DNA from: a virus
IMG/VR virus record: IMGVR_UViG_3300009164_000039
Strand: one strand, 5' to 3'
Length of the DNA: 64,000 bases
Shown here: piece by piece, positions 1 to 13,225 of the stretch
How the letters are laid out: each line of letters begins with the position of its first letter
Numbering within the stretch: the stretch's first letter is position 1
The notes under the pieces: model-generated
Told to the model about the DNA's origin: nothing
What the model saw: the letters and a program-made list of their open reading frames with translations, nothing else
Database searches by the model: none
Translations under genes and position numbers: made by a program

Positions 1-1980
1 GCCCAAGTTGGGATAATCCTCGTGGTCAATAAACAACCGCCAAACACCGCCAGGCGGCACAAGTTCATCTACTGTAAAAACTTCAATATTCTGTGGTCCA
101 AGGCCTCTGTTGTCTGTGCCAATCTCCACACCAAATGTAGCAGTTGGGTCAAGTTCATATCCAGGTAATTTAACATAGTTGTTGTCGTCACCTAGGAACA
201 GGTCATTAGCGGGTGGATTACTGTTACTGCCGTCAAACCCAATGTGAAAGTGTCCTGCTACTCCCGGACCTTCCATGTTGGTACCAATGGCCAAATTGCC
301 TCTAGTGGTGGCCAGTATCAGTCCATCACTGTTTGTGATAGTGTCTGCGTCAAATGTAAAGTTTCCAGTGTTGGCATTGCCTCCACCACCTAGCACACTC
401 TGTCCACTGCTGTTTAGGATGTCACCACCCGCTGGTAATGTTAGGTTGCCGGTCACATCAAACAACCATTCAACGTGTCCGTCATGTGCGGCATTCTTTA
501 GTTGTAGATGTGCTCTGTGATTGGCAGTGGTGTAATCACTACCGTCTTTGTCAAAGTAGAAGTAACTGGTGTTGTTGTCGTTGATCTCACCGTAGCTGAT
601 ACCAATCCAGTCAGCATCAGATCCGGTGCGGAACTCTAGGCCTGTGTAAGGAGCTTCTAGTGCTCCTATCTGTCCATTGTTGTTGGGCAAGTTCAAGATG
701 CCATTGTTATCAAAGGTCCAGGTTTTTGCAGGATTGCTATTGTCCTGGTATGCGGATATCTGGATGGTGCTACCCGATCCTTCTCGATTCTGTAGGATCT
801 GCGAAGCTATGTTTCCACTGTTGTAGAGCATGGTGGAGCCTAGCGCCACACCGCCAGATGGTGCTATGAATCCTGCTGTGCCTGTTTCGTAGCCTGAATC
901 CAGGATCAGGCTTCCGTATGGCATTGCAAGATTACCAGTATTGTCAAACTTCCAACTCCACTCACCTGTTGCGATTGCTGTAACCGAGGTATTGGCAAAT
1001 AATCCATTAACGGTCATGTTGGTGTTAAGAGATCCTACTGCAACACTCCAGTCCGTTGATTCTTGTGTTTGACCGGCTTGTGTGAATCCAATGGTAATCT
1101 GTCCTTGAGCGTCCAGACCAACTGTGTACATGCTGTCAATGTTGGGAGTCTGACTGACCATGCCAGCAAAGTTGACATCGCCATATTGCACATAATTAAA
1201 GCCTTCTACACCTGCATAGACCAAGCCAGAGTCGATTTGATCGCCTTTGTTAAAGATGCTACGGAATTCGCCGTAGCCTGATCCCATGTAAACTTCACCG
1301 GTTGCGATGTCTCCTTCACCAACAGTTGTGATGTCAGTGCCCAGTGTTGGAATAGCAGGATCGCCTGGATTTTTGTTAAAAGAGAAATTGTAATCTGGCG
1401 AAGTGATTGCTCCGCCTGCTGGTAGGGTTAATATGCCAGTGTTGCCAAAGGTCCACGTGCCTGCATCGGTGCTGATCTGTACAGCACTATTGGCGTCGGT
1501 TGCCTCAATAGACAATGGTGCGGCATTTGCGGCATTTGCGGATCTAGGTATAGTGATAGAACTGTAGCCTTCACCGCCAGGTATTAGGACTATGTCGTAG
1601 CCGCCTTTGCCGCCTGCGTCATCGGTGGTGCTTATAAAGGCTCGATCTTGATCGGTGTCAAATATAAACTTGCCAAGGTCTGCACCACCACCTGAATTGT
1701 TATCATTTGCCCAGGCCAGTGTTGAGCCACTTGCAGGCCACTTGAGTACCTGACCTGTTGTGCCCACAGTGTTGGGCATTGCAAATGCAGGTAAAACCAA
1801 GTTTCCACCCGAATCAACCTGTACTGTGTGTCCGTTATTCTGTAGGCTGTTTGTGCCTGCGGCACCGCCTGCTGTGCGTCCAACCCATTTTACCCCGTCC
1901 CAGAGATAGGTAGTGCCGTTGGCACTGTATTCTGTCACCCCAGCTACAAGGTTAGTTGTTGGAAAGTTTAATGCAGCCAT
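1..1980 (-). CDS. Tail fibre/virion structural protein, 3'-truncated by the window edge
   Basis: Read manually: ATG at 1980 (MAALNFPTTNLVAGVTEYSANGTTYLWDGVKW), still in frame at base 1. Gly/Thr/Asn-rich with repeated W-x-F-x-x-T-G-x-L-x-x-P motifs. TAAATA late-promoter core upstream (~2002-2007). Confidence 0.75.
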   Translation of the reverse strand, partial: MAALNFPTTNLVAGVTEYSANGTTYLWDGVKWVGRTAGGAAGTNSLQNNGHTVQVDSGGNLVLPAFAMPNTVGTTGQVLKWPASGSTLAWANDNNSGGGADLGKFIFDTDQDRAFISTTDDAGGKGGYDIVLIPGGEGYSSITIPRSANAANAAPLSIEATDANSAVQISTDAGTWTFGNTGILTLPAGGAITSPDYNFSFNKNPGDPAIPTLGTDITTVGEGDIATGEVYMGSGYGEFRSIFNKGDQIDSGLVYAGVEGFNYVQYGDVNFAGMVSQTPNIDSMYTVGLDAQGQITIGFTQAGQTQESTDWSVAVGSLNTNMTVNGLFANTSVTAIATGEWSWKFDNTGNLAMPYGSLILDSGYETGTAGFIAPSGGVALGSTMLYNSGNIASQILQNREGSGSTIQISAYQDNSNPAKTWTFDNNGILNLPNNNGQIGALEAPYTGLEFRTGSDADWIGISYGEINDNNTSYFYFDKDGSDYTTANHRAHLQLKNAAHDGHVEWLFDVTGNLTLPAGGDILNSSGQSVLGGGGNANTGNFTFDADTITNSDGLILATTRGNLAIGTNMEGPGVAGHFHIGFDGSNSNPPANDLFLGDDNNYVKLPGYELDPTATFGVEIGTDNRGLGPQNIEVFTVDELVPPGGVWRLFIDHEDYPNLG

Positions 1981-2016
1981 TTTTGTTTGTCCTTATTCTT
2001 GTATTTACCGTTTTTG

Positions 2017-3261
2017 TTAATCGTAATAGTTCTGGAACATATAGCTCTGTCCATTGGGAGTGGTGTTCACTGTGGTGCCCACGCATTGTCCTTGTACCAG
2101 CCAGGTTCCCACTGTGTCAAACGCTATTGCTTTGAAACGAATATAGCTGCCAGTGCGGGCATGATGCTGTCCCAGGAACAGATAGTTTGCATCTGCCACA
2201 CCCGCGGTGGCTGTGTGTAATCTTCCTTGGGTGCTGTTGTCCACTCCCACAAACAACGAACCCACAAACTGATCAGTTGTGCCTCTGCTGCCAGTGTAGA
2301 ATGCCTGTATGTAGATCTGCCCTGAATCCCCAGAGAAATAAAACTCAAATTCTGTGCCTAACAAGTTGGCTGTGATCTGTGGCAGTCTAAAGAGACTGTT
2401 GCCACCTGCTATTGTGATCAACTCACCTGCTTGAGCCGGGGTCAATTGTTGGAAAGCACCAGAAGCGTAGGTAGCGCCTATGCTGTCAATGGTTGATATA
2501 GCAGGACTTGCATCCACCCAGGCGTTGTTGTAGCGCAGATACAAGCGTCCTTCTTCGGTGTCCCACCAAAGGCTACCTGTGCGGTTAACAATGGGTGGAT
2601 TTGTGTCCACTGTGACATTTGCTCCTGTGCCAGTTAATACTATACTGCCCACGTTGGCATCTAGTCTTGCTATTTTAGTGTTAGCATAGGTTCGATATGC
2701 GTTAAAGTTTGTGGTTATTGTTGCGGCATTGGCATTGGCATAAGTTTTGTATGCGTTGAAGTTTGTGGTTATTGTTGCGGCGTTGGAATTTAGAGTTGCA
2801 ACATTGGAAGTTAGTGTTCCAATACTAACTCCAACGTTAGTAGCAAATCCTTCAAGGTCTCCTAGAAGACTATCAAAATCAGTTTTCAGTTGTGCAACAT
2901 TGGCAGTGAGTTCAACAACAGAAAGATCAGTAACACTAGGACTTGCATCTACCCAGGCATTGGAATAGCGTATGTAGGTGCGTCCACCTTCACTGTCGTA
3001 CCACAGTGTGCCTGTTGTTGATACAGTAGGAGGCGTATTGCCAACTGTGATGCTGGTGTTGGCTACTAGATTTGCTATGGCCAATACCTGCTGATTGGTT
3101 GCAAGCACCGTGCCACCTGTTGTGGTGCCATTGTACACCCGCAGAGTATTAAGATCTGTGTCTAGTACAATTTCGCCTCGCACACCATCGTATGCACTGG
3201 CCACAGCAGTGTTGCCACGACCTACCAGTATTTTTTTAATTTGTATGTTTGCCGCGGTCAT
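2017..3261 (-). CDS. Tail fibre/virion structural protein (414 aa)
   Basis: N-terminal GEIVLDTDLNTLRVYNGTTTGG fibre motif; two G(T/S)LW(Y/W)D..GR.Y.RY.NAWVDASP repeats; coiled-coil tandem repeat. Confidence 0.7.
   Translation of the reverse strand: MTAANIQIKKILVGRGNTAVASAYDGVRGEIVLDTDLNTLRVYNGTTTGGTVLATNQQVLAIANLVANTSITVGNTPPTVSTTGTLWYDSEGGRTYIRYSNAWVDASPSVTDLSVVELTANVAQLKTDFDSLLGDLEGFATNVGVSIGTLTSNVATLNSNAATITTNFNAYKTYANANAATITTNFNAYRTYANTKIARLDANVGSIVLTGTGANVTVDTNPPIVNRTGSLWWDTEEGRLYLRYNNAWVDASPAISTIDSIGATYASGAFQQLTPAQAGELITIAGGNSLFRLPQITANLLGTEFEFYFSGDSGQIYIQAFYTGSRGTTDQFVGSLFVGVDNSTQGRLHTATAGVADANYLFLGQHHARTGSYIRFKAIAFDTVGTWLVQGQCVGTTVNTTPNGQSYMFQNYYD
2690..2790 (-). repeat. Intragenic ~54-bp tandem duplication (NAATITTNFNAY[K/R]TYAN x2)
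   Basis: Two near-identical copies visible in DNA and protein; boundaries approximate. Confidence 0.85.
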
Positions 3262-3264
3262 ATT

Positions 3265-3759
3265 TTATATTTCTCCAGCATCAATAATGCCATCTTCAAG
3301 AGTTGCACCCACTGGCATGTTGTTGTAATAGCCTGCCAACACTTGCACAGGCAGTCTTGCACTGTAATTGTCGTCAATGTACAGTGGAGTTTCTTTGTTG
3401 GTGGTCAGGTCAATCAATTTGACTGTGAACTCATAGTGGCGTTGATCCAGCGAATTCACAACGTCTTTGGGGATGGTAAACACGCCCAGTCCCCGATTTT
3501 GGGTTATGAAATTCACAGTAAATGCTTCCACTGTGATGGCATTTTCTGGATCCTGTATGTCTACTTGCACATCGTAGCCAGTTAGATCAACACCTTTTTG
3601 ATCCTGATTTTTAGTCACAATGTGAATAGGGTTATCAATACCCTGGTATATTTTTATTGTTCTGCTGTACACGATCCTGTTCCTCGTAGAGAAGATGGCT
3701 GGATCTATGACCTGAATTTCTAGGATATTTTTGTAAGAAAACGTTTCAATTGTTTGCAT
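3265..3759 (-). CDS. Hypothetical virion protein, possibly BppU-like baseplate upper domain
   Basis: ORF track 3265..3798. Start moved to MQTIETF because a TAAATA late promoter lies inside the longer N-terminus. IYQGIDN...VDLTG motif. Confidence 0.55.
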   Translation of the reverse strand: MQTIETFSYKNILEIQVIDPAIFSTRNRIVYSRTIKIYQGIDNPIHIVTKNQDQKGVDLTGYDVQVDIQDPENAITVEAFTVNFITQNRGLGVFTIPKDVVNSLDQRHYEFTVKLIDLTTNKETPLYIDDNYSARLPVQVLAGYYNNMPVGATLEDGIIDAGEI

Positions 3760-3813
3760 AGGATACTGTCGCCATCTGTATCCTATATTTATGGGCAAAC
3801 AATAATACTTGGC

Positions 3814-4371
3814 TTAGGCAGTGTACCGGTAGTTGACCATGATTCCCCAGCTTTCTTGCTGGCGAATATCGCTGGTGTCTGCATCAAAGTTCACTGCATG
3901 CAGGCTAGCACCGTTGCCTAAATGGAACTTGGCCACAGGATCTTTGCGTGATGCAATGAACTCTCGCACTTGTTCTTCTGTAGGAGGTGCATCAAAATGC
4001 TTGCGCAGACTAGGTACAGGGCTCAATGTGTAGAAGTTTTGCACACCTTGTGCGCTGAAATGTCCCACAGCTTCTTTCAATGCTCTAGCACCCACACCCA
4101 ACAAGGCATCAGGTAGTCGAAAGATTGTGTAAAACATGGCAGTGAGACCTTCATCTTTGCTGTCCACAAAGATACCTTTCATGCTTTGCACTAGATCGTC
4201 ACCCACACGTGTGCAAATCATGCATTGATTTTTATCTTCTTCTTCATACATCAGCACAGTGCGTGTGCCCACAGTACGTGTTTCCTTATCAATAGTTGGA
4301 TGCACAGGGTCATGTGCAATTAGCTCTAACCAAGAGCGATCAAATTTTTCAGAGTTGGATGGAATAATCAT
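3814..4371 (-). CDS. Malonyl-CoA decarboxylase catalytic (C-terminal, GNAT-fold) domain, stand-alone
   Basis: Motifs AMFYTI, FYTLSPVP and DPVAKFHLGNGASLHAVNFDAD...WGIMVNYRY match MCD signatures. The start at 4371 follows an AAGGA SD and a TAAATA promoter; the ORF-track start at 4413 overlaps a terminator. Confidence 0.85.
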   Translation of the reverse strand: MIIPSNSEKFDRSWLELIAHDPVHPTIDKETRTVGTRTVLMYEEEDKNQCMICTRVGDDLVQSMKGIFVDSKDEGLTAMFYTIFRLPDALLGVGARALKEAVGHFSAQGVQNFYTLSPVPSLRKHFDAPPTEEQVREFIASRKDPVAKFHLGNGASLHAVNFDADTSDIRQQESWGIMVNYRYTA

Positions 4372-4413
4372 GGCATTTCCTTGAGGCATTATATGCGTAT
4401 TTATTACGGCCAT

Positions 4414-4433
4414 AAAAAAAGGACCGAAGTCCT
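4414..4433 (-). terminator. Intrinsic terminator ending the tRNA cluster
   Basis: AGGAC-TTCG-GTCCT hairpin followed by a T tract. Confidence 0.85.
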
Positions 4434-4441
4434 GGCTATAG

Positions 4442-4517
4442 TGGTCTCTCTGAGCTGAGTTGAACAGCTATCTAAACTTTAGGAGAGTCTTGTTCTATCC
4501 TATTGAACTACAGAGAG
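4442..4517 (-). tRNA. tRNA-Arg(CCU)
   Basis: Cloverleaf, loop CT-CCT-AA, encoded CCA. Confidence 0.9.
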
Positions 4518-4522
4518 TATGT

Positions 4523-4614
4523 TGGCGGAAGACGGAGGAGTCGAACCCCATCCCTGTTAAGAGAACCTGGTTTTCAAGGCCAGTCGCAGGACCAACCCCG
4601 CTGCATCATCTTCC
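4523..4614 (-). tRNA. tRNA-Ser(UGA)
   Basis: Cloverleaf with long variable arm, loop CT-TGA-AA, CCA. Confidence 0.9.
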
Positions 4615-4620
4615 ATTGAT

Positions 4621-4694
4621 TGGCGTACCCCCAGAGACTCGAACTCCGACGAACAGTTTTGGAGACTGCTATGCTGCCATTACATTAGGGATAC
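4621..4694 (-). tRNA. tRNA-Trp(CCA)
   Basis: Loop CT-CCA-AA, TTCGA T-loop, CCA. Confidence 0.92.
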
Positions 4695-4699
4695 ATTAT

Positions 4700-4775
4700 T
4701 GGTTGCGGGACTTGGATTTGAACCAAGGATGGCAAAGGCTTATGAGACCTCGCTGGTGACCGGACCCTTCCCGCG
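4700..4775 (-). tRNA. tRNA-Met(CAU), probably initiator-type
   Basis: Loop CT-CAT-AA; C1:A72 mismatch typical of fMet; anticodon stem lacks the full 3 G-C pairs. Confidence 0.85.
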
Positions 4776-4783
4776 ATAGATTC

Positions 4784-4857
4784 TATACTGAAACACACTC
4801 ACCCGAATGGACATATCCTGAGTTCCGCCTGCTGTCGGAAGTGTGTTTTAGTATAGT
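4784..4857 (-). ncRNA. Hairpin-closed small RNA module of unknown function
   Basis: 17-bp terminal inverted repeat ctatactgaaacacact / agtgtgttttagtatag with ~40 nt interior; boundaries approximate. Confidence 0.5.
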
Positions 4858-5742
4858 GGAGGACTGAGAATACATCTCTCCCATAAGCACCTCAAGCATT
4901 ATTACTAGCCTTGCGAGCCAGCTTTCTCTTGACTTCCACTAGGGTCCTTGCGGATCTCCCAGTCTGCTTACAGCATCGCCGTTTTTAACGTCAGGCAGTA
5001 GACGTGTCATCATATGCTATTCTGCGGATTCCATTCCGTTAGCCTTGCGAGCTATTCAGGTGCGCTAACACCTTACGAACCCCCCTCCACAAACTAATGT
5101 CACCTTGCGAGCTTCATTAGACTTGATTCACTTGCGTGTCAAGTATTAGATACTTTTCACATATGACCGAGGCAGTCTTTGCGTTTTTGTAATGATAGTC
5201 AGGATTTGAACCCGACTGCATCCAGCTTAAAAGGCTAGCGTTCAACCATTGAACTTTATCAACCTACCGTGATGAGCTACCTCTGTTGCTACATAATCTT
5301 TTGGACTACATAATACAACTCACCACATACCTTTCCTCTTGCGGAGTAATCAGTGATGTTTCACGACCAGTGTCCTGCATTGCTACAGTCCACCACCCAT
5401 TAACATTGCACACGAGCCCTTGGGTGCAAACCCTCGAACCAATGCACTACCCTTTCTCATACCAGCTGACTGATTGGTTTTGTTGGGAAGTCAGCACCAC
5501 CTGTTACTTTTCATGCACCCTGGTTCCCTTGCAGGCCAGTCGACGCACATTCTTTCCCCAACATCAGCTTTGCTGTTACAACCACCGGTCTTATCAGTGA
5601 TCGCTACCTCGCGATAGTGAGCAGGCTTGTTTACATGAACCATTGCTGGCGCAGGAGTGTAGGACTCATCTGCTTTGGGTGGGTCACCCCACTTATTCTT
5701 CGTACACTAGCAAGCTAGCATACAGGACAATAAACTGCCCCG
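4857..5742 (-). ncRNA. Large ornate structured RNA, GOLLD-like
   Basis: ~0.9 kb with no credible sense ORF; six C-GCAA-G hairpin loops (4910, 4947, 5044, 5104, 5131, 5338) plus further GNRA loops; inside a phage tRNA cluster; own consensus promoter; embedded tRNA-like domain. Family assignment is by resemblance, not a covariance-model search. Confidence 0.7.
5193..5261 (-). tRNA. tRNA-Lys(UUU)-like domain embedded in the GOLLD-like RNA (no CCA)
   Basis: D arm gttc/gaac, anticodon arm ctagc-CTTTTAA-gctgg, T arm tcggg-TTCAAAT-cctga, short acceptor tgata/tatca, no 3' CCA. Confidence 0.75.
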
Positions 5743-5805
5743 AAATCTTTATGCAATTGAACACTGTATGCACATTTGTATAAAGACTTGTTAACCTAAG
5801 CATCT

Positions 5806-5834
5806 ATTATAAGACACTTTTTATTTGTTGTCAA
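5806..5834 (-). promoter_or_regulatory. Sigma70-type promoter for the GOLLD-like RNA
   Basis: TTGACA-17 bp-TATAAT, perfect consensus. Confidence 0.88.
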
Positions 5835-5865
5835 TATATTTTGAGCAAAGTCCTAAAAATACATT

Positions 5866-5941
5866 TGGTAGGGCCACCCGGACTCGAACCGGGAACTGGC
5901 AGATTAAAAGTCTGCTGTGATAACCATTTCACCATAACCCC
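5866..5941 (-). tRNA. tRNA-Lys(UUU)
   Basis: Loop CT-TTT-AA, CCA. Confidence 0.93.
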
Positions 5942-5946
5942 GTATA

Positions 5947-6022
5947 TGGTCCCTGCGGCCGGAATCGAACCGGCAACCTTCTGATTAAGAGTCAGTTGCG
6001 CTACCTATTGCGCCACACAGGG
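5947..6022 (-). tRNA. tRNA-Lys(CUU)
   Basis: Loop CT-CTT-AA, CCA. Confidence 0.93.
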
Positions 6023-6083
6023 TTGTTCGTAATTTTTTGATTTTACGTGCCAACCCTAGACCAATACGGGATCTAGAGCGACA

Positions 6084-6104
6084 CTAGAGTTTACCTCGTT
6101 TCAT
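6084..6104 (-). CDS. Putative mini leader ORF MKRGKL followed by a hairpin
   Basis: GGAG SD (6111-6114), ATG AAA CGA GGT AAA CTC TAG, then a tgtcg/tggca + ctagatc/ggtctag stem. Confidence 0.45.
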   Translation of the reverse strand: MKRGKL

Positions 6105-6132
6105 GTCATTCTCCTTTGAATTAAAAACTTAC

Positions 6133-6206
6133 TGGTGCTCAAGTACAGAATCGAACTGTTGACTGCTCCTTACCATGGAGCCGTTATACCACTTAACTAC
6201 AAGAGC
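6133..6206 (-). tRNA. tRNA-Thr(GGU)
   Basis: gctcc-ATGGTAA-ggagc; unusual A32; CCA. Confidence 0.88.
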
Positions 6207-6207
6207 T

Positions 6208-6283
6208 TGGTGGAAGTGGTGAGACTCGAACTCACGATAGACACCGTATGAAGGTGGCGCATTAGCCGCTATGCTACACTTCC
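6208..6283 (-). tRNA. tRNA with CAU anticodon (elongator Met or Ile2)
   Basis: Loop TT-CAT-AC, CCA. Confidence 0.88.
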
Positions 6284-6287
6284 AGAC

Positions 6288-6365
6288 TGGAGCAACGGAC
6301 AGGATTTGAACCTGTGGTTTTCGGGATTTGCAATCCCGTGCATTGGGCCACTCTGCCACCGTTGC
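6288..6365 (-). tRNA. tRNA-Cys(GCA)
   Basis: cggga-TTGCAAA-tcccg, discriminator U, CCA. Confidence 0.92.
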
Positions 6366-6371
6366 ATTTGT

Positions 6372-6447
6372 TGGAGCGGGCGATCGGGTTCGAACCGACG
6401 ACATTTACCTTGGCAAGGTAATGCTCTACCAACTGAGCTACGCCCGC
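6372..6447 (-). tRNA. tRNA-Gly(GCC)
   Basis: ttacc-TTGCCAA-ggtaa, CCA. Confidence 0.95.
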
Positions 6448-6452
6448 ATAAA

Positions 6453-6655
6453 TTAGTGCCTAGCTACTCACACCACATGAGCCCTAGACTGAGCAGTTTA
6501 CTCTGTCTCACGTTACTGTCGTTTGGTCCAGCTATCGTCAACCCGAGATATTTTCCGTACTCCTGAGATGAAGTCGTGTGGTAAGATCTCGCGCACCAAG
6601 TCCGTCGTTATGGCAAGGGACCACTCGCCCACTTTAATAACCGTAAAGTGTAACG
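6453..6655 (-). ncRNA. ~200-nt structured non-tRNA RNA (possibly manA-motif-like)
   Basis: Long-range pairing tggtgc/gcacta and cttaccaca/tgtggtgtgag closes a multistem domain, with extra 5' hairpins. Family name is a recollection-level guess. Confidence 0.5.
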
Positions 6656-6662
6656 GAGTTTT

Positions 6663-6738
6663 TGGCTCCACAGGGTGGGCTCGAACCACCGACCAAATGA
6701 TTAACAGTCATCTACTCTACCGACTGAGCTACTGCGGA
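6663..6738 (-). tRNA. tRNA-Asn(GUU)
   Basis: Loop CT-GTT-AA, CCA. Confidence 0.95.
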
Positions 6739-6745
6739 ATAAACT

Positions 6746-6835
6746 TGGCGGAACGAAAGAGACTCGAACTCTTAAACCGGGATTAACCGATCGACGGTTT
6801 AGCAAACCGCTCCAATACCATTATGGGACCGTTCC
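6746..6835 (-). tRNA. tRNA-Ser(GCU)
   Basis: Loop TT-GCT-AA, long variable arm, CCA. Confidence 0.92.
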
Positions 6836-6845
6836 TTGTATTACT

Positions 6846-6874
6846 ATTATATAGCAACTGTGCATGCATGTCAA
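6846..6874 (-). promoter_or_regulatory. Sigma70-type promoter internal to the tRNA cluster
   Basis: TTGACA-17 bp-TATAAT, perfect consensus. Confidence 0.88.
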
Positions 6875-6882
6875 CTATATTC

Positions 6883-6958
6883 TGGTGTTTCCTAGTGGGC
6901 TTGAACCACTGACCTTTAGGATGTCGACCTAGTGCTCTACCAGCTGAGCTAAGGAAAC
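6883..6958 (-). tRNA. tRNA-Val(GAC)
   Basis: Loop TC-GAC-AT (non-canonical C33), CCA. Confidence 0.85.
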
Positions 6959-6959
6959 C

Positions 6960-7038
6960 TGGTACCCTGTCTCTGATTCGAACAGAGAGAACTCTTCCTT
7001 TTGAGAGAAGCGACTTTACCTAATTTGTCCAACAGGGC
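6960..7038 (-). tRNA. tRNA-Leu(CAA)
   Basis: cttct-CTCAAAA-ggaag, short variable region, CCA. Confidence 0.87.
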
Positions 7039-7044
7039 ATTGTG

Positions 7045-7120
7045 TGGTACCAAGAGTTGGACTCGAACCAACCACACCTAGTGCTTCAAACTAGTGCTCT
7101 ACCTGATGAGCTATCTTGGC
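7045..7120 (-). tRNA. tRNA-Phe(GAA)
   Basis: ctagt-TTGAAGC-actag, CCA. Confidence 0.92.
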
Positions 7121-7127
7121 ATTATCT

Positions 7128-7186
7128 TAGGGACGCCGGCTCAGCTTGGTCGTTTAAGACACGCAGGACATCTGCGTGGCTCCCTA
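7128..7186 (-). ncRNA. Small three-way RNA with TCTTAAACGACCAAGC core (copy 1; possibly Acido-Lenti-1-like)
   Basis: Closing stem tagggagcc/ggcgtcccta, hairpin cacgcag/ctgcgtg; core shared with the 8009-8069 element. Confidence 0.6.
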
Positions 7187-7192
7187 TAAAAT

Positions 7193-7267
7193 TGGGTTGA
7201 GGTACGAGGATCGAACTCGTGATAGCGGAATCACAACCCGCGGTTTTGCCACTAAACTAACCTCAAC
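7193..7267 (-). tRNA. tRNA-His(GUG)
   Basis: Loop TT-GTG-AT, encoded G-1 opposite C73, CCA. Confidence 0.93.
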
Positions 7268-7273
7268 ATTGTC

Positions 7274-7348
7274 TGGCCGGTCCTGCAGGAATCGAACCCA
7301 CACCGCTTGGTTCGAAGCCAAGCATTCTATCCATTGAACTAAGGACCG
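7274..7348 (-). tRNA. tRNA-Arg(UCG)
   Basis: cttgg-CTTCGAA-ccaag, CCA. Confidence 0.93.
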
Positions 7349-7355
7349 AATATGT

Positions 7356-7429
7356 TGGCACGGGAACTAGGGATCGAACCTAGGACGACAGAGTCAAAGT
7401 CTGTTGTGTTACCTCTACACCATTCCCGA
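7356..7429 (-). tRNA. tRNA-Gln(UUG)
   Basis: acaga-CTTTGAC-tctgt, CCA. Confidence 0.92.
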
Positions 7430-7436
7430 ACAGATC

Positions 7437-7513
7437 TGGTGCGACCAGAGAGATTCGAACTCCCCACCCCAACGTTCGTAGCGTTGTACTCTATCCAAAT
7501 GAGCTATGGTCGC
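7437..7513 (-). tRNA. tRNA-Arg(ACG)
   Basis: caacg-CTACGAA-cgttg, CCA. Confidence 0.93.
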
Positions 7514-7520
7514 ATAATTA

Positions 7521-7570
7521 GTGCTAGATTGTTTACTGCACAACCTAGCAAAGCAGGGGTCTGTAAACTG
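7521..7570 (-). ncRNA. Compact putative H-type pseudoknot RNA
   Basis: P1 gttta/taaac plus ctgc/gcag; loop tgctagg complementary to 3' tail tctagca. Confidence 0.45.
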
Positions 7571-7614
7571 CATATAACTTATCACATTGTACTCCATATG
7601 CAAGGGAGAGTGCT

Positions 7615-7689
7615 TGGTATCCTGCACGGGTATCGATCCCGTTCCTACACCTTGAAAGGGTATTGATCTAGCCAGTAATCTAGCAGGAT
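7615..7689 (-). tRNA. tRNA-Glu(UUC), atypical copy
   Basis: atacc-CTTTCAA-ggtgt; T-loop reads ATCGATA (A at 54); CCA. Confidence 0.8.
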
Positions 7690-7698
7690 GTATTGAAT

Positions 7699-7918
7699 TT
7701 GAGAGCCTACGCCGCATTTATCGTAGATTTATTCAGGACTTACCGGCCGCCTAGCCTGACCTCGAGCACGATGGATATCACTTGGGATCCGTCCAGCGTA
7801 GTCTCCTTTACAGACCTCCGCAGTTGCCCGCGGGTGGGAGTTGAACCCATTTGCCTTTTACTGTTTTGGTCCTTCGAAGAAACCTCATTAGCGTGACTGT
7901 ACTTGCTGACACTCTCAA
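7699..7918 (-). ncRNA. ~220-nt stem-closed RNA containing a T-arm mimic
   Basis: Terminal IR tttgagag/ctctcaaa; internal tggg-TTCAACT-ccca T-arm; no anticodon/CCA architecture. Confidence 0.45.
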
Positions 7919-7922
7919 AACT

Positions 7923-7996
7923 TGGTGGAGGACCAGGGTATTGAACCCTTGTAGTCAGTATGCTTGCAAGGCAAACCCGCCGCCCTCGGCTCCCCC
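7923..7996 (-). tRNA. tRNA-Ala(UGC), atypical copy with degenerate D arm
   Basis: Loop CT-TGC-AA, G3:U70 Ala identity pair, CCA; D arm poorly paired. Confidence 0.75.
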
Positions 7997-8008
7997 CATT
8001 GTACTATC

Positions 8009-8069
8009 TACAGGACACCCCTATGGGCTTGGTTGTTTAAGAGTACGCCTACCCAGCGACTCTCCTCTA
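8009..8069 (-). ncRNA. Small three-way RNA with TCTTAAACAACCAAGC core (copy 2)
   Basis: Hairpin agagtcgc/gcgtactct, core, short ccc/ggg hairpin, closing agga/tcct. Confidence 0.55.
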
Positions 8070-8074
8070 AAACT

Positions 8075-8150
8075 TGGCGCCTCGTAGGGGACTCGAACCC
8101 CTGACATCCGACTAGACAGGCCGGCACTCTACCAACTGAGTTAACGAAGC
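8075..8150 (-). tRNA. tRNA-Asp(GUC)
   Basis: ccggc-CTGTCTA-gtcgg, CCA. Confidence 0.92.
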
Positions 8151-8157
8151 AGAAAGA

Positions 8158-8231
8158 TGGAGCGGGGTAGGAGAATCGAACTCCTCGCTTTAGCTTGGAA
8201 GGCTAAGGTATTACCACTATACGAACCCCGC
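8158..8231 (-). tRNA. tRNA-Gly(UCC)
   Basis: ttagc-CTTCCAA-gctaa, CCA. Confidence 0.94.
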
Positions 8232-8239
8232 ATAGATTT

Positions 8240-8315
8240 TGGTGGAGGATACAGGGATCGAACCTGCGACCTATTGCTTGCAAAGCAACCGCTCTCCCAA
8301 CTGAGCTAATCCCCC
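8240..8315 (-). tRNA. tRNA-Ala(UGC), canonical copy
   Basis: Loop TT-TGC-AA, G3:U70, CCA. Confidence 0.95.
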
Positions 8316-8322
8316 AATGACA

Positions 8323-8399
8323 TGGTCGGAGTACAAGGATTCGAACCTTGGACCCCCTGGTCCCAAACCAGGTGCGCTACCAGACTGCGCCACACTCCG
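8323..8399 (-). tRNA. tRNA-Pro(UGG)
   Basis: cctgg-TTTGGGA-ccagg, CCA. Confidence 0.95.
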
Positions 8400-8404
8400 A
8401 TGAT

Positions 8405-8480
8405 TGGTGCCCCCTGTCCGACTCGAACAGACCACCTTCTGATTACAAAACAGATGCTCTACCTGATGAGCTAAGAGGGC
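8405..8480 (-). tRNA. tRNA-Thr(UGU)
   Basis: Loop TT-TGT-AA, CCA. Confidence 0.92.
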
Positions 8481-8487
8481 AAAAACT

Positions 8488-8562
8488 TGGTGCGAGATGA
8501 GAGTGTCGAACTCCCGACCCTCTGAATGTAAATCAGATGCTCTACCGCTGAGCTAATCTCGC
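8488..8562 (-). tRNA. tRNA-Val(UAC)
   Basis: tctga-TTTACAT-tcaga, CCA. Confidence 0.92.
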
Positions 8563-8588
8563 AAATTAATTTTGTATTTTATTTAACA

Positions 8589-8663
8589 TGGTTGCCATGG
8601 ACAGTTTCGAAATGTCGACCTATCGGTTATCAACCGATTGCTCTTCCTCTGAGCTACACGGCA
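8589..8663 (-). tRNA. tRNA-Ile(GAU)
   Basis: atcgg-TTGATAA-ccgat, CCA. Confidence 0.92.
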
Positions 8664-8669
8664 AAAATG

Positions 8670-8744
8670 TGGTACTGGGCACGGGAATCGAACCCGTCTT
8701 ACAAACGTGAAAGGCTTGTGTCCTAACCGATAGACGAGCCCAGC
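8670..8744 (-). tRNA. tRNA-Glu(UUC), canonical copy
   Basis: caagc-CTTTCAC-gtttg, TTCGA T-loop, CCA. Confidence 0.92.
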
Positions 8745-8751
8745 ATACAAA

Positions 8752-8838
8752 TGGTGGAGACGGTAGGAATCGAACCTACGGTGTTTCTGATGTCACTGAT
8801 TTACAGTCAGCTGCCTTCGCCGCTCGGCACACATCTCC
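8752..8838 (-). tRNA. tRNA-Tyr(GUA)
   Basis: gctga-CTGTAAA-tcagt, long variable arm, CCA. Confidence 0.93.
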
Positions 8839-8840
8839 AT

Positions 8841-8931
8841 ATAGGAACACACTACCAGTCCCGAGGATTCGAACCTCTTTCTCTTATAGTTTACCACGAC
8901 TTTTGCAGTCAGGCAAGCAATGTGTTTTTAT
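8841..8931 (-). ncRNA. Stem-closed RNA module with a T-arm mimic
   Basis: Terminal IR around aacaca/tgtgtt; internal gagg-TTCGAAT-cctc. Confidence 0.45.
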
Positions 8932-8932
8932 A

Positions 8933-9009
8933 TGGTGCCCCAGAGGAGACTCGAACTCCTAAAATTTGGCTTCTAAGACCAACACGTATACCAATTCCGT
9001 CACCGGGGC
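8933..9009 (-). tRNA. tRNA-Leu(UAG)
   Basis: ttggt-CTTAGAA-gccaa, short variable region, CCA. Confidence 0.9.
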
Positions 9010-9099
9010 AATTTGTCACAACAGATTGTTAAGGAACCATGTTCGTCTGCATGACTATGCAGTTGTTATTAGCAACACGATGTTTGCTACAGTTCCACA

Positions 9100-9127
9100 A
9101 GTATAACATCTTTTTCATTGTTGTCTA
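9100..9127 (-). promoter_or_regulatory. Possible sigma70-type promoter
   Basis: TAGACA-16 bp-TATACT. Confidence 0.45.
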
Positions 9128-9161
9128 CTAGTTTGTAAAAATATTTTTCTTCTGTTGTTTT

Positions 9162-9240
9162 TATGCACTCTAGTTGTTGCGTCCACAACCTGCCGCCTGC
9201 CGAGTCATGGTCGGGTGGGCTTGGCCTTCTAGAGTGTATA
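9162..9240 (-). ncRNA. Hairpin-closed small RNA module
   Basis: 12-bp terminal IR tatgcactctag/ctagagtgtata; interior contains AGGCGG; boundaries approximate. Confidence 0.45.
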
Positions 9241-9304
9241 GTAAAGTGTTCTACACGGATACGTACCCGCCTTTCGCCTCGCGGCTAGAGAACACTTTAC
9301 TATA
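9237..9304 (-). ncRNA. Hairpin-closed small RNA module
   Basis: Perfect 16-bp terminal IR tatagtaaagtgttct/agaacactttactata; interior contains AGGCGG. Confidence 0.5.
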
Positions 9305-9425
9305 ACTGGATTTTACACATCTGCGTTGTCGCCACAGACTTATCATCCCCAGTCCCGCCCTCATTATAGCCGATGTTTTGAGTGCCGGCAGGGTCGCGTT
9401 CCCTATACACACTTTTCATGATCCT

Positions 9426-9462
9426 AAAAACAAAAAACCCCAGGGTGTTAAGCCTAGGGTCC
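9426..9462 (-). terminator. Attenuator terminator upstream of the main tRNA operon
   Basis: accctagg-cttaacac-cctggggt followed by TTTTTGTTTTT; the 5' arm is also complementary to the leader ORF 3' end. Confidence 0.85.
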
Positions 9463-9488
9463 TTGGAGTTTGCAGTTGTTAATTTGTG

Positions 9489-9626
9489 TTAACTGTGCAT
9501 GGTCTCCTGGACCCTTGATTCCTGTGGTGTGCGATCATTACTAATCTCAGTCGCAGACCAGCTGGCCATTGGCAATGAATAGCCTAGGTTATGCTGTTTG
9601 CTAAAGAGTGAGAATGATTTACACAT
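9489..9626 (-). CDS. 45-aa attenuator leader peptide (MCKSFSLFSKQHNLGYSLPMASWSATEISNDRTPQESRVQETMHS)
   Basis: Manual translation; AAGGA SD upstream; lies between a consensus promoter and a terminator; its 3' end forms the antiterminator. Confidence 0.72.
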   Translation of the reverse strand: MCKSFSLFSKQHNLGYSLPMASWSATEISNDRTPQESRVQETMHS

Positions 9627-9674
9627 TTTGTTTACTTTTCCTTTTTTACAGGCTGCTTTTGCAACCTATGTCGT

Positions 9675-9703
9675 ATTGTATATTTATTTAGTCCTGCTGT
9701 CAA
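9675..9703 (-). promoter_or_regulatory. Sigma70-type promoter with an embedded CTAAATA late-promoter core
   Basis: TTGACA-17 bp-TACAAT; spacer gcaggaCTAAATAaata. Confidence 0.82.
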
Positions 9704-9754
9704 CCAGCTTTGGAATATTTAGTTTTTTGTTGTAAAAATACAACAAATTGAATT

Positions 9755-9853
9755 TGGTGCCCTTGGCAGGAGTCGAACCTGCACACTGTGGCTTATCTAG
9801 CCACTGCTTTGGCGAGGTATAAGCTCGCTTCTTTACCATTAAGCTACAAGGGC
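9755..9853 (-). tRNA. tRNA-Ile(UAU) with a large extra arm (99 nt)
   Basis: gcgag-CTTATAC-ctcgc; ~28-nt variable region with gtggct/agccac hairpin; TTCGA T-loop; CCA. Confidence 0.82.
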
Positions 9854-9858
9854 ATGAT

Positions 9859-9942
9859 TGGTGCGACTGGCCGGACTCGAACCGGCATGCCGTGAAGCGG
9901 GAGATTTTAAGTCTCCTGAGTATACCATTTCTCCACAGTCGC
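9859..9942 (-). tRNA. tRNA-Leu(UAA)
   Basis: ggaga-CTTAAAA-tctcc, variable arm, CCA. Confidence 0.93.
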
Positions 9943-9962
9943 ATTAGAGCACGTTGATCAGA

Positions 9963-10007
9963 TCAACGTATTCGTAATCGTATGCTGTGGAGAGCCTTGT
10001 AGTTCAT
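9963..10007 (-). CDS. Putative leaderless 14-aa mini-ORF MNYKALHSIRLRIR
   Basis: ATG 7 nt below a -10 box; ends ATA CGA TTA CGA ATA CGT TGA; stop lies inside a 9-bp inverted repeat (9951-9969). Confidence 0.5.
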   Translation of the reverse strand: MNYKALHSIRLRIR

Positions 10008-10013
10008 GTGTGT

Positions 10014-10041
10014 ATAATAGCTTGAATGTTTATTTATGTCA
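10014..10041 (-). promoter_or_regulatory. Sigma70-type promoter with overlapping ATAAATA
   Basis: TTGACA-16 bp-TATTAT. Confidence 0.65.
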
Positions 10042-10050
10042 AGCAAAAAT

Positions 10051-10839
10051 TTATGGCTTGACAACCAAAAATCCAGCGATAGCAGGGATCACTCGATTGC
10101 GTCGAGGTTGGCTGGCCATGGTGGTCATGCTGGTTTGTACTACAAATCCCACTTGTTCTACATGTGCTTGCACTTGATCTGTGCAGGTGTACAAAAATAT
10201 ATGATCATGCGATGCGGCATTGATAGCCGCACTAACAAATGCTGTACCACCCGGCCGTAGCACACGATGCAGTTGTGTCAAGAACTGTACCGGATCCTCC
10301 ACATGCTCTAGCACTTCAACACACACCAACCAATCAGTACTGGCATCCGGTGTTTGTTCTATGCTTTGCACTGTTGCCTGGTACCTAGTGGGGTTCAGTG
10401 CAGATGCAAACTCAACTGAAGCAGGACTGATGTCAATTGCATGTCCTTGTATGTTAGACCATGTTTGCAAGATCTTCCAAGAGTATGCGCCAGATCCGAC
10501 CCCAACATCTAAAAACTCAGTAGCATCAGCCATCTGTTGCACAAATTGATCTTGGAAAAAGCAAAGCTGACGATACTGGTGCGGCCATAGCCAGTGTGAT
10601 AACAACAGTCCGGGCAAGTACTCTGTCATCATGTGTTCTTTGTTTAGGTACACTGCGTCACTGACCTGTTGGTGAGTACGATTGCGATACTGTCCGGTGC
10701 GGTTGAATTCAATTTGGTACTTGATTAGTCTAGTACAAAAATTACGATAGGCAACTTGATAGGACACAGGAAAGCAATCAAATTCTTGTTTCCAAGAATC
10801 ACCAAACAGCCGATATGCTTGATCTTGATGGGAGATCAT
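10051..10839 (-). CDS. Class I SAM-dependent methyltransferase
   Basis: FLDVGVGSG motif I; EVLEHVEDP...LHRVLRPGG. Confidence 0.88.
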   Translation of the reverse strand: MISHQDQAYRLFGDSWKQEFDCFPVSYQVAYRNFCTRLIKYQIEFNRTGQYRNRTHQQVSDAVYLNKEHMMTEYLPGLLLSHWLWPHQYRQLCFFQDQFVQQMADATEFLDVGVGSGAYSWKILQTWSNIQGHAIDISPASVEFASALNPTRYQATVQSIEQTPDASTDWLVCVEVLEHVEDPVQFLTQLHRVLRPGGTAFVSAAINAASHDHIFLYTCTDQVQAHVEQVGFVVQTSMTTMASQPRRNRVIPAIAGFLVVKP

Positions 10840-11327
10840 TTAACAAAGTCCACCATTAGTATCACACGTTCGCTTGATGATTTATTAGCAGCCTGGTGTT
10901 TTTTCCTATCATCAAACAACATCATCTGCCCTTCTTCCCAATAGTAGCAGGTGTTTTTTACTTGTATAAATGCGTTGCCAGGGCAGATCAGTCCCAGATG
11001 CGATCTCCACACATTATCAGTGTAGCCTCTATGTGGATGAATCACACAGTCTGGTTCCATGATAGAAAATCCTGCTAGGTACAGGCCCGGAATGTCTTTG
11101 ATTAGTTCTCGGGTGACAGGACAATTATCCCATCCTGCTTGTTTCTGGTATTGATGTACAAGAAAATACAAGCGCCAACGCTCGTTGTGCAGTTCTTTCA
11201 TGTGCCAGAGTTCTGCTTGTTCTCTGTAGAGTAAAAACTCATCACGGATTGCTTGCCAGTTGTCTTGCAACGGCTTGAGGAACGGGTAAGCATCAATTGA
11301 TTGAAACACAGGAAGTTGATCTCTCAT
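10836..11327 (-). CDS. Aspartyl/asparaginyl beta-hydroxylase family 2OG-Fe(II) dioxygenase (LpxO-like)
   Basis: AGFSIMEPDCVIHPHRGY, RSHLGLICP, W.EG...LFDD...H.A.N.S..ERVILMVDF. Confidence 0.88.
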   Translation of the reverse strand: MRDQLPVFQSIDAYPFLKPLQDNWQAIRDEFLLYREQAELWHMKELHNERWRLYFLVHQYQKQAGWDNCPVTRELIKDIPGLYLAGFSIMEPDCVIHPHRGYTDNVWRSHLGLICPGNAFIQVKNTCYYWEEGQMMLFDDRKKHQAANKSSSERVILMVDFVK

Positions 11328-11349
11328 ACAAGTATATATGCTGAGGTAT

Positions 11350-11424
11350 TGGTCCGGCGCACAGGAATCGAACCCGTATTCTAGAGGTAGAAGCTCTATG
11401 TATTATCCGTTATACGAACGCCAG
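11350..11424 (-). tRNA. tRNA-Arg(UCU)
   Basis: tagag-CTTCTAC-ctcta, CCA. Confidence 0.92.
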
Positions 11425-11429
11425 TTGTT

Positions 11430-11504
11430 TGGTGGGCTGACTTGGAATTGAACCAAGACTCAATGAATTATGAGTTCACTGCTTTACCATTAAGCTATCA
11501 GCCC
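11430..11504 (-). tRNA. tRNA with CAU anticodon (Ile2 or Met)
   Basis: gtgaa-CTCATAA-ttcat, CCA. Confidence 0.9.
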
Positions 11505-11512
11505 GTTGAACT

Positions 11513-11541
11513 ATTGTATGTTAATTTATCTTTTGTGTCAA
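11513..11541 (-). promoter_or_regulatory. Sigma70-type promoter for the tRNA(CAU)-tRNA-Arg-hydroxylase-methyltransferase unit
   Basis: TTGACA-17 bp-TACAAT. Confidence 0.8.
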
Positions 11542-12287
11542 TCTTCAACTGAATAGTAGTCTTTGTCCAACCAAGCATGCACGATATCTTCTTGTCTTAG
11601 ATATCCGTAGCTGTTGACACTGGCTATACAGTTGTCGTTGATCAGGCCTTGGTCAGCCAGGTGCTGCCAATTGGTAGTTCGTGGATCTAAAAAGTTTTCT
11701 GAGTTTTTATAAACTGCGGCATAGATCCAAGGATTTTCTCTGCGCTTGTAGAAATAGGCATCACGACAATCAAACCCATTGATGGCCAACATGTACATTA
11801 GGTTGCCGTATGTGTAGTTGTAGTAGCATCCATTCATGGTGCGATGCACTAGTCTGTTGTGATGATAGTTTATCTGCTGTGGAATAGTTAAAATCATCAT
11901 ACCATTCACATTCATTTGCTGGTTCCACAATTTAAGTGTGCTCAATGGATTGATTGCGTACTGGAACGCATCGTGGCACCAAAGAACATCCACAGGCTTG
12001 GGCAACAATGCAGTTTCAAAATCGCCTTTGATCACTGTGACATTTTCCGGCAAGTCTACTACCAGTCGATTGGTATCTATATCCACAGCATAACAATCAA
12101 AATTATAGGGCTCAAATGGGTCTTCTTTGTTGGTTAGTGTAGCCCACCAATTGATATCCAAGCCACCACCACAGCCCAGGTCTGCCACAGTGGTAACAGA
12201 TTCTAGAAAATCATCATAACCGTACAACAGATCTAGCACATAACTGGAATGTTCGTGACTGTGGTACGGGTTTCTAAACTGTTCCAT
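11538..12287 (-). CDS. Class I SAM-dependent methyltransferase
   Basis: VADLGCGGG motif I; YAVDID; DVLWCHDAFQY. Confidence 0.85.
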   Translation of the reverse strand: MEQFRNPYHSHEHSSYVLDLLYGYDDFLESVTTVADLGCGGGLDINWWATLTNKEDPFEPYNFDCYAVDIDTNRLVVDLPENVTVIKGDFETALLPKPVDVLWCHDAFQYAINPLSTLKLWNQQMNVNGMMILTIPQQINYHHNRLVHRTMNGCYYNYTYGNLMYMLAINGFDCRDAYFYKRRENPWIYAAVYKNSENFLDPRTTNWQHLADQGLINDNCIASVNSYGYLRQEDIVHAWLDKDYYSVED

Positions 12288-12528
12288 GCTTCAAAATTTC
12301 CAAAATAAGTTTTGTTTTCAGGTGGTCAAGACGTGATTCAAGTTGGTGGCAAGCTTCTGCTATTTCTAACTCGCTGCCCCATGACCGTTGTGTGGCCAGA
12401 TGAGTGGCCCAACGAGCCACTTCATCTTTTTCCATTTGTACTTCGGCTGCATTACCTTTGGGCTGTGCTCGTACACAAAGATTAAATTCTTCAATAAGAT
12501 GATCAGCTTGTTCACGCCAGTCAATCAT
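12274..12528 (-). CDS. Hypothetical protein (84 aa)
   Basis: Overlaps both neighbours in operon fashion. Confidence 0.7.
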   Translation of the reverse strand: MIDWREQADHLIEEFNLCVRAQPKGNAAEVQMEKDEVARWATHLATQRSWGSELEIAEACHQLESRLDHLKTKLILEILKHGTV

Positions 12529-12977
12529 ACTGACACATCCTCCATGCCTGCTGTTCTCAATCGCACCACATGACCCAGCATGAAGTTCTTGCTTTCAAGA
12601 CCTTTCATCACACCCAGCCAGCGATTGCGCAACAGTGCAACTTCATTGATGATGGTTTCAAAGTCAATCACTTCGTCTTCGCCATCCACATACTTTTCAG
12701 CATCACGACTTGTGAGTGCTCGAGCATATCCTTCAAGATACTTCTGAAAGTGCTTGCGTCGGATTTTTCGTAGTTGTATGTTCAGATACTCAAGCACCGC
12801 TTCAATCTCTTGTAGTTGATTGAAACGATGCTCGGTTATGCCAGGTAGTCCACTTAGGTTCTTTTCAACTATTCCAGCAATACGTACATCACTGCGAGCG
12901 GATATGAGTTCAGCGTCATAGTATGTTATGAAGTCTGGTATCTTTCCAAGATCCGCAACAACACGATTGTACCACAT
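12525..12977 (-). CDS. uvsY: Recombination mediator UvsY
   Basis: Helical 150 aa; YLEGYARALTSRDAEKYVDGE motif; near uvsX and gp32. Confidence 0.8.
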   Translation of the reverse strand: MWYNRVVADLGKIPDFITYYDAELISARSDVRIAGIVEKNLSGLPGITEHRFNQLQEIEAVLEYLNIQLRKIRRKHFQKYLEGYARALTSRDAEKYVDGEDEVIDFETIINEVALLRNRWLGVMKGLESKNFMLGHVVRLRTAGMEDVSV

Positions 12978-13225
12978 CAGTCATCCTGATCGTAATTGTA
13001 ATCTGTTTCTTCGTCTGCATCGTCTTCTTCGGGGTCCAGATACTCTTCGCTGGCACGTTTGAGATATGCATCCCCACCTGCCAACATTCTCAGGTCCTGG
13101 TCCTGTAGTCCACTGTCGCTCAGAATACTAAACATATGATCAGCCGCTGCCTGGCGATCTTTCTGTGGGATGTATTCTTTAAGAGTGGTATACGCATCTA
13201 TCAATAGATCAATATCTAAGCTCAT
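12977..13225 (-). CDS. Hypothetical protein (82 aa, acidic tail)
   Basis: Translationally coupled between uvsX and uvsY. Confidence 0.75.
   Translation of the reverse strand: MSLDIDLLIDAYTTLKEYIPQKDRQAAADHMFSILSDSGLQDQDLRMLAGGDAYLKRASEEYLDPEEDDADEETDYNYDQDD

Follow-up and report, generated by a model that had tools for sequence, protein, structure and literature searches.

The DNA analysed here, hereafter called the window, is a viral stretch of 64,000 nucleotides (nt) held as IMG/VR record IMGVR_UViG_3300009164_000039. In total, 32 tRNA genes were found in it by ARAGORN at 4442–11504, all on one strand, and the same strand carries the subject of this study, a large structured RNA of the GOLLD family that holds a tRNA-like module in its linker. 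The source is an uncultivated large phage, because the UvsX-like protein encoded in the window, which also has a gp32-like gene, finds its nearest cultured relatives among jumbo myoviruses (including Atu_ph07, CBB and GAP32; 64–70% amino-acid identity), and 20 kb of the window gave no match to cultured phages by megablast. The sequencing runs containing the stretch are lake and freshwater samples.

GOLLD RNA was reportedly described by Weinberg et al. in 2009. In the 64-kb window, the Rfam covariance model of GOLLD (RF02032) matches the minus strand at 5326–4861 with 201.3 bits (gathering score, 150; E-value, 2.5 × 10−55), and the match is complete, covering model positions 1–416 of 416. ROOL is likewise a large, ornate RNA of phages that occurs close to tRNAs and forms cages with an interior linker, but it is unrelated to GOLLD in sequence and fold, and the ROOL model of Rfam has no match at the gathering threshold anywhere within the window. 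It is virtually certain that the stretch encodes a member of the GOLLD family. The original prediction, made from the letters of the DNA, had described a GOLLD-like ornate RNA of ~0.9 kb and had proposed a search with these two models; both the family and the size were borne out. The GOLLD family, its setting in tRNA islands and its embedded tRNAs or pseudo-tRNAs have already been published (PMC6582537, PMC12990946, PMC12286853).

The minus strand from 5741 to 4857 is a full-length GOLLD RNA of ~885 nt from a freshwater jumbo phage (Table 1). In the alignment of relatives, the conserved RNA starts at GGGGCAG near 5741, and its 3' terminal stem runs 4 nt past the Rfam model; the longer hairpin covaries and ends at 4857, exactly at the coordinate given in the original prediction. 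The RNA consists of two domains and a linker (Rfam model positions ~62–130) and is rich in GNRA-capped hairpins. It thereby agrees with the family, in which a length above 800 nt is common and the 3' domain is better conserved than the 5' domain. The six CGCAAG hairpins that had been noticed earlier, with no strand named, are all located on the minus strand at 4910–5343, and the motif occurs 42 times on both strands of the entire window. Only one sense-strand open reading frame of at least 50 amino acids is present, and it is just 50 amino acids long, in agreement with the earlier claim that no credible sense frame exists.

Relatives were gathered from IMG/VR using a motif from the 3' domain of the window's own RNA, which gave at least 119 loci; all proportions reported below apply to this sampled branch of GOLLD rather than to the whole family. 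By BLASTN, the sequence preceding the Rfam match (5327 to ~5750) is common to 87 sampled loci, the best 25 of which share 75–88% identity with it, and the 3' domain is present in 96 (77–91% for the best 25). The 81 nt following the Rfam match are not common to the sampled loci. Among cultured phages, BLAST detected similarity only to the two Xanthomonas jumbo phages BUDD and X1, over 184 nt of the 3' domain at ~70% identity, and hence no close relative in culture. The window and 40 non-redundant full-length relatives were aligned over ~890 nt, with a mean column identity of 75%. Based on these 41 sequences, RNAalifold predicted 225 base pairs, and compensatory double changes were found in 144 of them; the covariation among homologs on which the original prediction had staked its family assignment is therefore present. 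The compensatory changes occur in the 5' domain (including helices at alignment columns 108–121, 189–202 and 241–357) and the 3' domain alike, and within the tRNA-like module they affect its D, anticodon and T stems.

Two candidate features were rejected. A long-range helix between GUAGGUU and the invariant AAGCCUGCU of the 5' domain, proposed by RNAalifold, showed no compensatory changes and four uncompensated G-to-A changes. A conserved CCA-like 3' end of GOLLD was also discarded: many relatives finish in UCCA or GCCA, others in UAACA or UAGCA. The GUAGGUU element itself (5261–5267, minus strand; columns 574–581) is near-invariant and enters the first bases of the module, though the acceptor pairs located there are not maintained.

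Table 1. Coordinates of the GOLLD RNA, its parts and the adjoining features in the window.
Feature	Position	Strand	Basis
Sigma-70-type promoter-like site: TTGACA 5834–5829, 17-nt spacer, TATAAT 5811–5806	5806–5834	−	12 of 12 consensus positions
Non-conserved leader between promoter and conserved RNA	5742–5805	−	Absent from the conservation in the 41-sequence alignment
Mature GOLLD RNA	4857–5741	−	Rfam match, homology and covariation with 40 relatives, 3' stem, RNA contigs 4864–5735
GOLLD 5' domain, outside the Rfam model	5327–5741	−	BLASTN to relatives, compensatory helices
Conserved hairpin with CCAAAAG loop, then invariant GUAGGUU	5264–5326	−	Rfam model positions 1–62; alignment columns 516–581
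tRNA-like module in the linker	5190–5263	−	Rfam tRNA model, cloverleaf parse of relatives
GOLLD 3' domain: A-rich joiner AAAAACGCAAAG, long-range helix, GNRA-capped hairpins	4861–5189	−	Rfam positions ~130–416, BLASTN, covariation
Long-stem cassette directly after GOLLD: 17-base-pair stem (4783–4799/4840–4856) around a 40-nt insert	4780–4856	−	Inverted repeat
First terminator-like site downstream, beyond tRNAs 4442–4694	4420–4433	−	Predicted

Accumulation of the RNA in lake water

The stretch was found in nine lake-water metatranscriptomes. Three of these (X2, X6 and X7, from three studies) were compared with one DNA run over positions 1–14000 of the window. The RNA evidence consists of assembled contigs with one mean depth each, in which the strand and exact ends are not resolved, and uncovered parts, such as the tRNAs at 4442–4694, do not count as silent. 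Contigs with 0–1 differences from the window span 4864–5735 at depths of 177–485 in X2, 311–315 in X6 and 24–56 in X7. In the same RNA runs, the depth over the flanking protein genes (1–4200 and 9300–13000) is about zero, while the DNA run covers these genes evenly at 12–14x; thus, carry-over of DNA cannot explain the signal. The GOLLD RNA is made, and it is abundant in lakes. Two of the contigs, 5050–5603 and 4895–5460, pass uninterrupted through the tRNA-like module and bridge both of its junctions, showing that intact molecules spanning the module exist.

The promoter-like site matches the consensus perfectly and predicts a start near 5799. A near-consensus promoter is also present in about 14 relatives, where it ends 9 nt ahead of the conserved RNA start, compared with 65 nt in the window; in other relatives GOLLD directly follows a tRNA. 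RNA contigs from two studies break off at 5734 and 5735 (one is fused there to an Illumina adapter), which weakly suggests a mature 5' end at the conserved start (~5735–5741), ~60 nt downstream of the start predicted from the promoter. Probably the leader is either removed by trimming or bypassed by a more proximal true start. A proximal promoter with the element CATAAA at 5753–5748 was considered as the true start and was not retained; its position is plausible, but its match is weak, and the contigs do not separate a start from a processing site. The earlier claim that the RNA has its own promoter therefore stands as to the sequence match, whereas the mature end appears some distance downstream of where that promoter would place it.

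A tRNA-like module in the linker

The module in the linker of the window's RNA (5263–5190) scores 47.7 bits on the Rfam tRNA model (threshold, 29) and has the anticodon UUU at 5231–5229; it is not called by ARAGORN. Its D and anticodon arms are normal, while position 8 is A instead of U and the T stem has 6 base pairs. In the Rfam tRNA alignment, the acceptor has a G-U at pair 1:72 and a non-standard U-U mismatch at pair 2:71, and inserted bases are seen in the T stem. A CCA end is encoded in each of the window's 32 free tRNA genes; at the module, CAAAAA follows in its place. A canonical free tRNA-Lys(UUU), called by ARAGORN, is located at 5866–5941, ~600 nt upstream. The original prediction had placed a CCA-less Lys(UUU) cloverleaf with a weak acceptor end at 5193–5261 and had taken its anticodon for a duplicate of that of a nearby tRNA-Lys; apart from slightly wider borders, the description proved accurate.

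The module is widespread among relatives. In most sampled loci, ARAGORN finds a tRNA at one fixed distance from the 3' domain, and a cloverleaf parse with thresholds set by the authors recovered a cloverleaf in the same slot of 70 out of ~105 unique loci. Several of the remaining loci have a recognisable odder version, and some have just a short hairpin. A CCA end is present in 2 of the 70 modules versus 1,019 of the 1,061 unique free tRNAs on the same contigs (96%). Acceptor pairs 1–3 are paired in 47–56% of the modules, where ~38% would be expected by chance, and in 94–100% of the free tRNAs (acceptor figures for the latter were computed on the 1,019 with a CCA end), whereas the corresponding values for pairs 4–7 are 93–96% and 96–99%. 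The G+C content of the acceptor is 26% in modules and 67% in free tRNAs. On the other hand, the anticodon loop of the 70 modules is strongly conserved (C32, 86%; U33, 99%; U35, 87%; U36, 93%; A37, 93%; A38, 96%), T54, C56 and A58 of the T loop are invariant, and U8 is kept in 66 of 70. The two modules with CCA are those of loci L031 and L020. In L031, the acceptor is well paired and the GUAGGUU flank is absent, and this module looks like a genuine tRNA-Lys(CUU) in a GOLLD linker.

One explanation of such a module is that it is a genuine tRNA stored in GOLLD, from which RNase P and a 3' nuclease would excise it, after which it would gain CCA and become an extra tRNA-Lys, released possibly late or on demand; cutting would split GOLLD into two halves. 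This idea of 'inhibited storage' has been published (PMC12990946), and it fits the score of the window's module, which falls within the 46–74-bit range of the free tRNAs around it, the D, anticodon and T arms and loop nucleotides, which are canonical family-wide, and the two relatives with a CCA end. It fits poorly with the missing CCA and the near-chance pairing of the outer acceptor across the family, with A8 and the 6-base-pair T stem of the window's copy, and with the canonical tRNA-Lys(UUU) already present upstream. Moreover, the same anticodon stems carry different anticodons (GTT in L090 versus TTT in L096; GTT in L056 versus TTT in L100 and TCT in L030), and such single-base flips on identical tRNA bodies are not expected if a specific synthetase must recognise the product. 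The abundant RNA contigs that bridge both module junctions speak against storage as well, as does the undetectable expression of the embedded pseudo-tRNA of a Mycobacterium GOLLD (PMC6582537). Storage of a working tRNA is thus quite unlikely, and the module probably stays tethered and does not work as a tRNA. The view expressed in the original prediction, that the Lys domain is no ordinary tRNA, agrees with the unmaintained outer acceptor and mostly absent CCA of the 70 relatives, the canonical state of the 1,061 free tRNAs and the unbroken contigs.

The Mycobacterium/Mycolicibacterium case is a close published parallel in arrangement. There, a GOLLD lies inside an array of ~32 tRNA genes and has a predicted pseudo-tRNA with no detectable expression of its own (PMC6582537; Morgado et al. 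2020, cited in PMC12990946). It differs in that the array is an acquired chromosomal one and the anticodon is that of Phe, whereas the window belongs to a jumbo phage and its branch has mostly Asn and Lys anticodons.

The degenerate acceptor end, together with the lack of U8 and the odd T stem in the window's copy, might also suggest a decaying, functionless remnant of a captured tRNA gene. Against this, the three inner stems are rich in compensatory changes, the loops are 86–100% conserved though the scaffolds of the relatives differ by 20–30%, and near-identical modules with the same A8 and 6-base-pair T stem persist in L040 and L049. Decay of this kind is extremely improbable.

The anticodons of the modules cover a narrow range: GTT was found in 32 of the 70, TTT in 15, CTT in 7, ATT in 3, TCT in 3 and TGT in 2, with eight singletons. 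GTT, TTT and CTT together account for 54 modules (77%), or 57 (81%) with ATT, versus 8% of the free tRNAs for the first three and <10% for all four NUU anticodons. A maximum-likelihood tree of the 41 scaffolds was built with the module columns removed, and the anticodon label requires 16 changes on it, while shuffled labels require 14–18 (mean, 17). The turnover of anticodons or of whole modules is saturated, and the repertoire is still narrow, which argues for selection rather than inheritance. In two metatranscriptomes, contigs are identical to the window up to 5187 and then continue into the Asn(GUU)-type module of L039 and L076. Because the contigs switch exactly at the module border (5187–5190), they represent co-occurring phage strains that share one scaffold and differ in their tRNA-like cassettes, so that module exchange is visible in nature. 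No discussion of an anticodon bias of embedded modules was found in the GOLLD papers examined.

Compared with published GOLLDs, the RNA of the window shows nothing categorically different: the full model match, the length of ~0.9 kb, the two domains with a linker, the GNRA hairpins, the tRNA island, the expression and the tRNA-shaped linker insert are all shared, and the original prediction was correct in placing a tRNA-shaped domain in the variable linker of a GOLLD within a phage tRNA cluster. What sets the freshwater branch apart is its linker module, which is demonstrably non-canonical and, instead of varying, is conserved.

Possible roles of the tRNA-like module

Two GOLLD RNAs have been solved by cryo-electron microscopy, env-38 as a 14-mer and that of Streptococcus agalactiae as a 12-mer (PMC12286853, PMC12990946). 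GOLLD cages contain 10–14 copies, the linker points inward, and tRNAs are described as 'sometimes present' in it (PMC12286853, PMC12990946); in pull-downs, GOLLD binds ribosomes (PMC12286853).

The module could be purely architectural, a rigid L-shaped strut that aids cage assembly and has no outside partner. Its U-rich anticodon loop might then pair, inside one protomer or between two, with the CCAAAAG loop or with the AAAAAYGCAAAG joiner. In line with this, the invariant A-rich segments on either side of the module are complementary to the NUU anticodons, the spacing between the module and each of the two domains is fixed, and kissing loops and A-minor contacts underlie GOLLD assembly (PMC12286853, PMC12990946). 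A partner of this sort is at odds with anticodon position 34, where the base is free to vary (G, 33; T, 24; C, 8; A, 5) and for which no partner column was found in the whole alignment (top mutual information, 0.31; shuffle threshold, 0.44). Furthermore, cages form without a tRNA-like module, the env-38 linker being 42 nt long and disordered, and neither the canonical U33 nor A37-A38 would be required in a strut. A purely architectural role is therefore improbable.

The reading we favour is that a cage-forming GOLLD carries a tethered, non-chargeable tRNA mimic whose anticodon loop is read by a partner. Homology with the two GOLLDs of known structure suggests that the RNA, which is transcribed within the tRNA island and accumulates to high levels, self-assembles into an RNA-only cage of 10–14 copies with the linker facing the interior. 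The module keeps the tRNA elbow and the canonical anticodon loop and has lost the features for excision and charging; most likely it remains covalently attached, and each particle would then carry about twelve Lys(UUU) anticodon arms. Since the anticodon loop is conserved, position 34 is free and no covarying partner is present in the RNA, the most likely task of these arms would be to bind a factor that recognises NUU anticodon loops in trans. The data show the family membership, conservation, expression, contiguity across the module, non-canonical features and restricted anticodons, whereas we infer that the RNA forms cages, that the module is not processed out and what its partner is. Taken as a whole, the reading seems to us evenly balanced between right and wrong.

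The leading candidate for the partner is a host tRNA-targeting defence nuclease, for which the module would act as a decoy or sponge, because the anti-phage nucleases PARIS AriB and PrrC are known to attack tRNA-Lys and are countered by phage tRNAs (PMC11464382, PMC11555353); tRNA-modifying enzymes and the ribosome are alternatives. The original prediction had suggested a decoy or displayed ligand for anticodon nucleases or ribosomes, and the restricted NUU repertoire would be compatible with it. Known examples of countering tRNAs include the T5 tRNA-Lys against PARIS (PMC11464382), phage tRNA-Lys against PrrC and tRNA-Tyr against retron-Eco7 (PMC11555353). The module resembles them as a phage RNA with a Lys anticodon arm in a tRNA cluster, and the likeness is one of possible function only: anti-defence tRNAs are free and chargeable and replace the cleaved host tRNA, whereas the module is not plausibly chargeable and would act as bait. 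Cleavage of tRNA-Asn and tRNA-Thr by PARIS was also considered and then discarded, as the text of the paper does not support it (PMC11464382). That the partner is an anticodon nuclease is a tentative proposal, with the balance leaning against it. A bolder version is more speculative still: the module may be the functional 'warhead' of this branch, the cage presenting non-chargeable anticodon arms as bait for tRNA-targeting nucleases or other readers of ANN-decoding tRNAs. To our knowledge, no decoy of the tethered-mimic kind has been shown.

Several points weigh against the favoured reading. The linker lies inside the solved cage, which would hinder a large nuclease unless the cage opens, and one of the two solved GOLLDs, env-38, has merely the short disordered linker mentioned above (PMC12286853). 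Cage formation by the window's RNA is itself assumed. The contig data prove that intact molecules exist and are compatible with partial excision of the module, and a CCA-adding enzyme could supply CCA after cleavage. The relatives were collected by a motif, which biases the sample. Finally, among published anti-phage nucleases we found none directed at tRNA-Asn, the type most often mimicked. Colicin E5 cleaves tRNA-Asn.

If the decoy interpretation were true, GOLLD would gain its first function since its description in 2009, and the fast swapping of anticodons on exchangeable modules, mostly between Asn and Lys types with a few of Thr, Arg and Ile type, would be the trace of an arms race with host defences. 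The window provides a well-documented natural example from an abundant lake phage, with RNA accumulation shown by three independent metatranscriptome studies. Its relatives sharpen the published statement that tRNAs are occasionally found in the linker, pointing in this branch to a conserved, probably non-chargeable mimic, mainly of Asn or Lys type, with an anticodon loop under selection, and they direct experiments on GOLLD function toward factors that read Asn and Lys anticodon loops.

Other features of the tRNA island

The long-stem cassette lies outside GOLLD. In most of the 40 relatives, GOLLD is followed by the first arm of the cassette's stem (CACTATTCTAAAACACATT), and the return arm is found in six of them with differing inserts. 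The high-depth RNA contigs listed leave the cassette uncovered. The cassette may serve in processing, perhaps by RNase III, or belong to a small cassette family. Further downstream, the terminator-like site likely ends the transcription unit.

Two tRNA-like sequences without annotation lie between this site and GOLLD on the minus strand. The first (4527–4614) has a long variable arm and the apparent anticodon UGA; it was called neither by ARAGORN nor by the Rfam tRNA model, and it scored 36.6 bits with the tRNA-Sec model, under the gathering score of 47. It is probably a tRNA-Ser(UGA). The second (4700–4779), not called by any tool, resembles a tRNA with CAU in its anticodon loop and an ACCA end, in which the T arm is normal and the D arm aberrant. 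Elsewhere in the island, the tRNA-Glu(CUC) called by ARAGORN at 9755–9853 (minus strand) has its anticodon at position 38 and a length of 99 nt, unusual for class I, and may hold an insertion.

A further region, ~7690–8075 (~385 nt, from tRNA-Glu to tRNA-Asp), has no called tRNA and reaches depths of 40–100 in two lake RNA libraries. Its RNA contigs show several variant positions (7826, 7852–7853), and it may represent another abundant structured RNA of the island.

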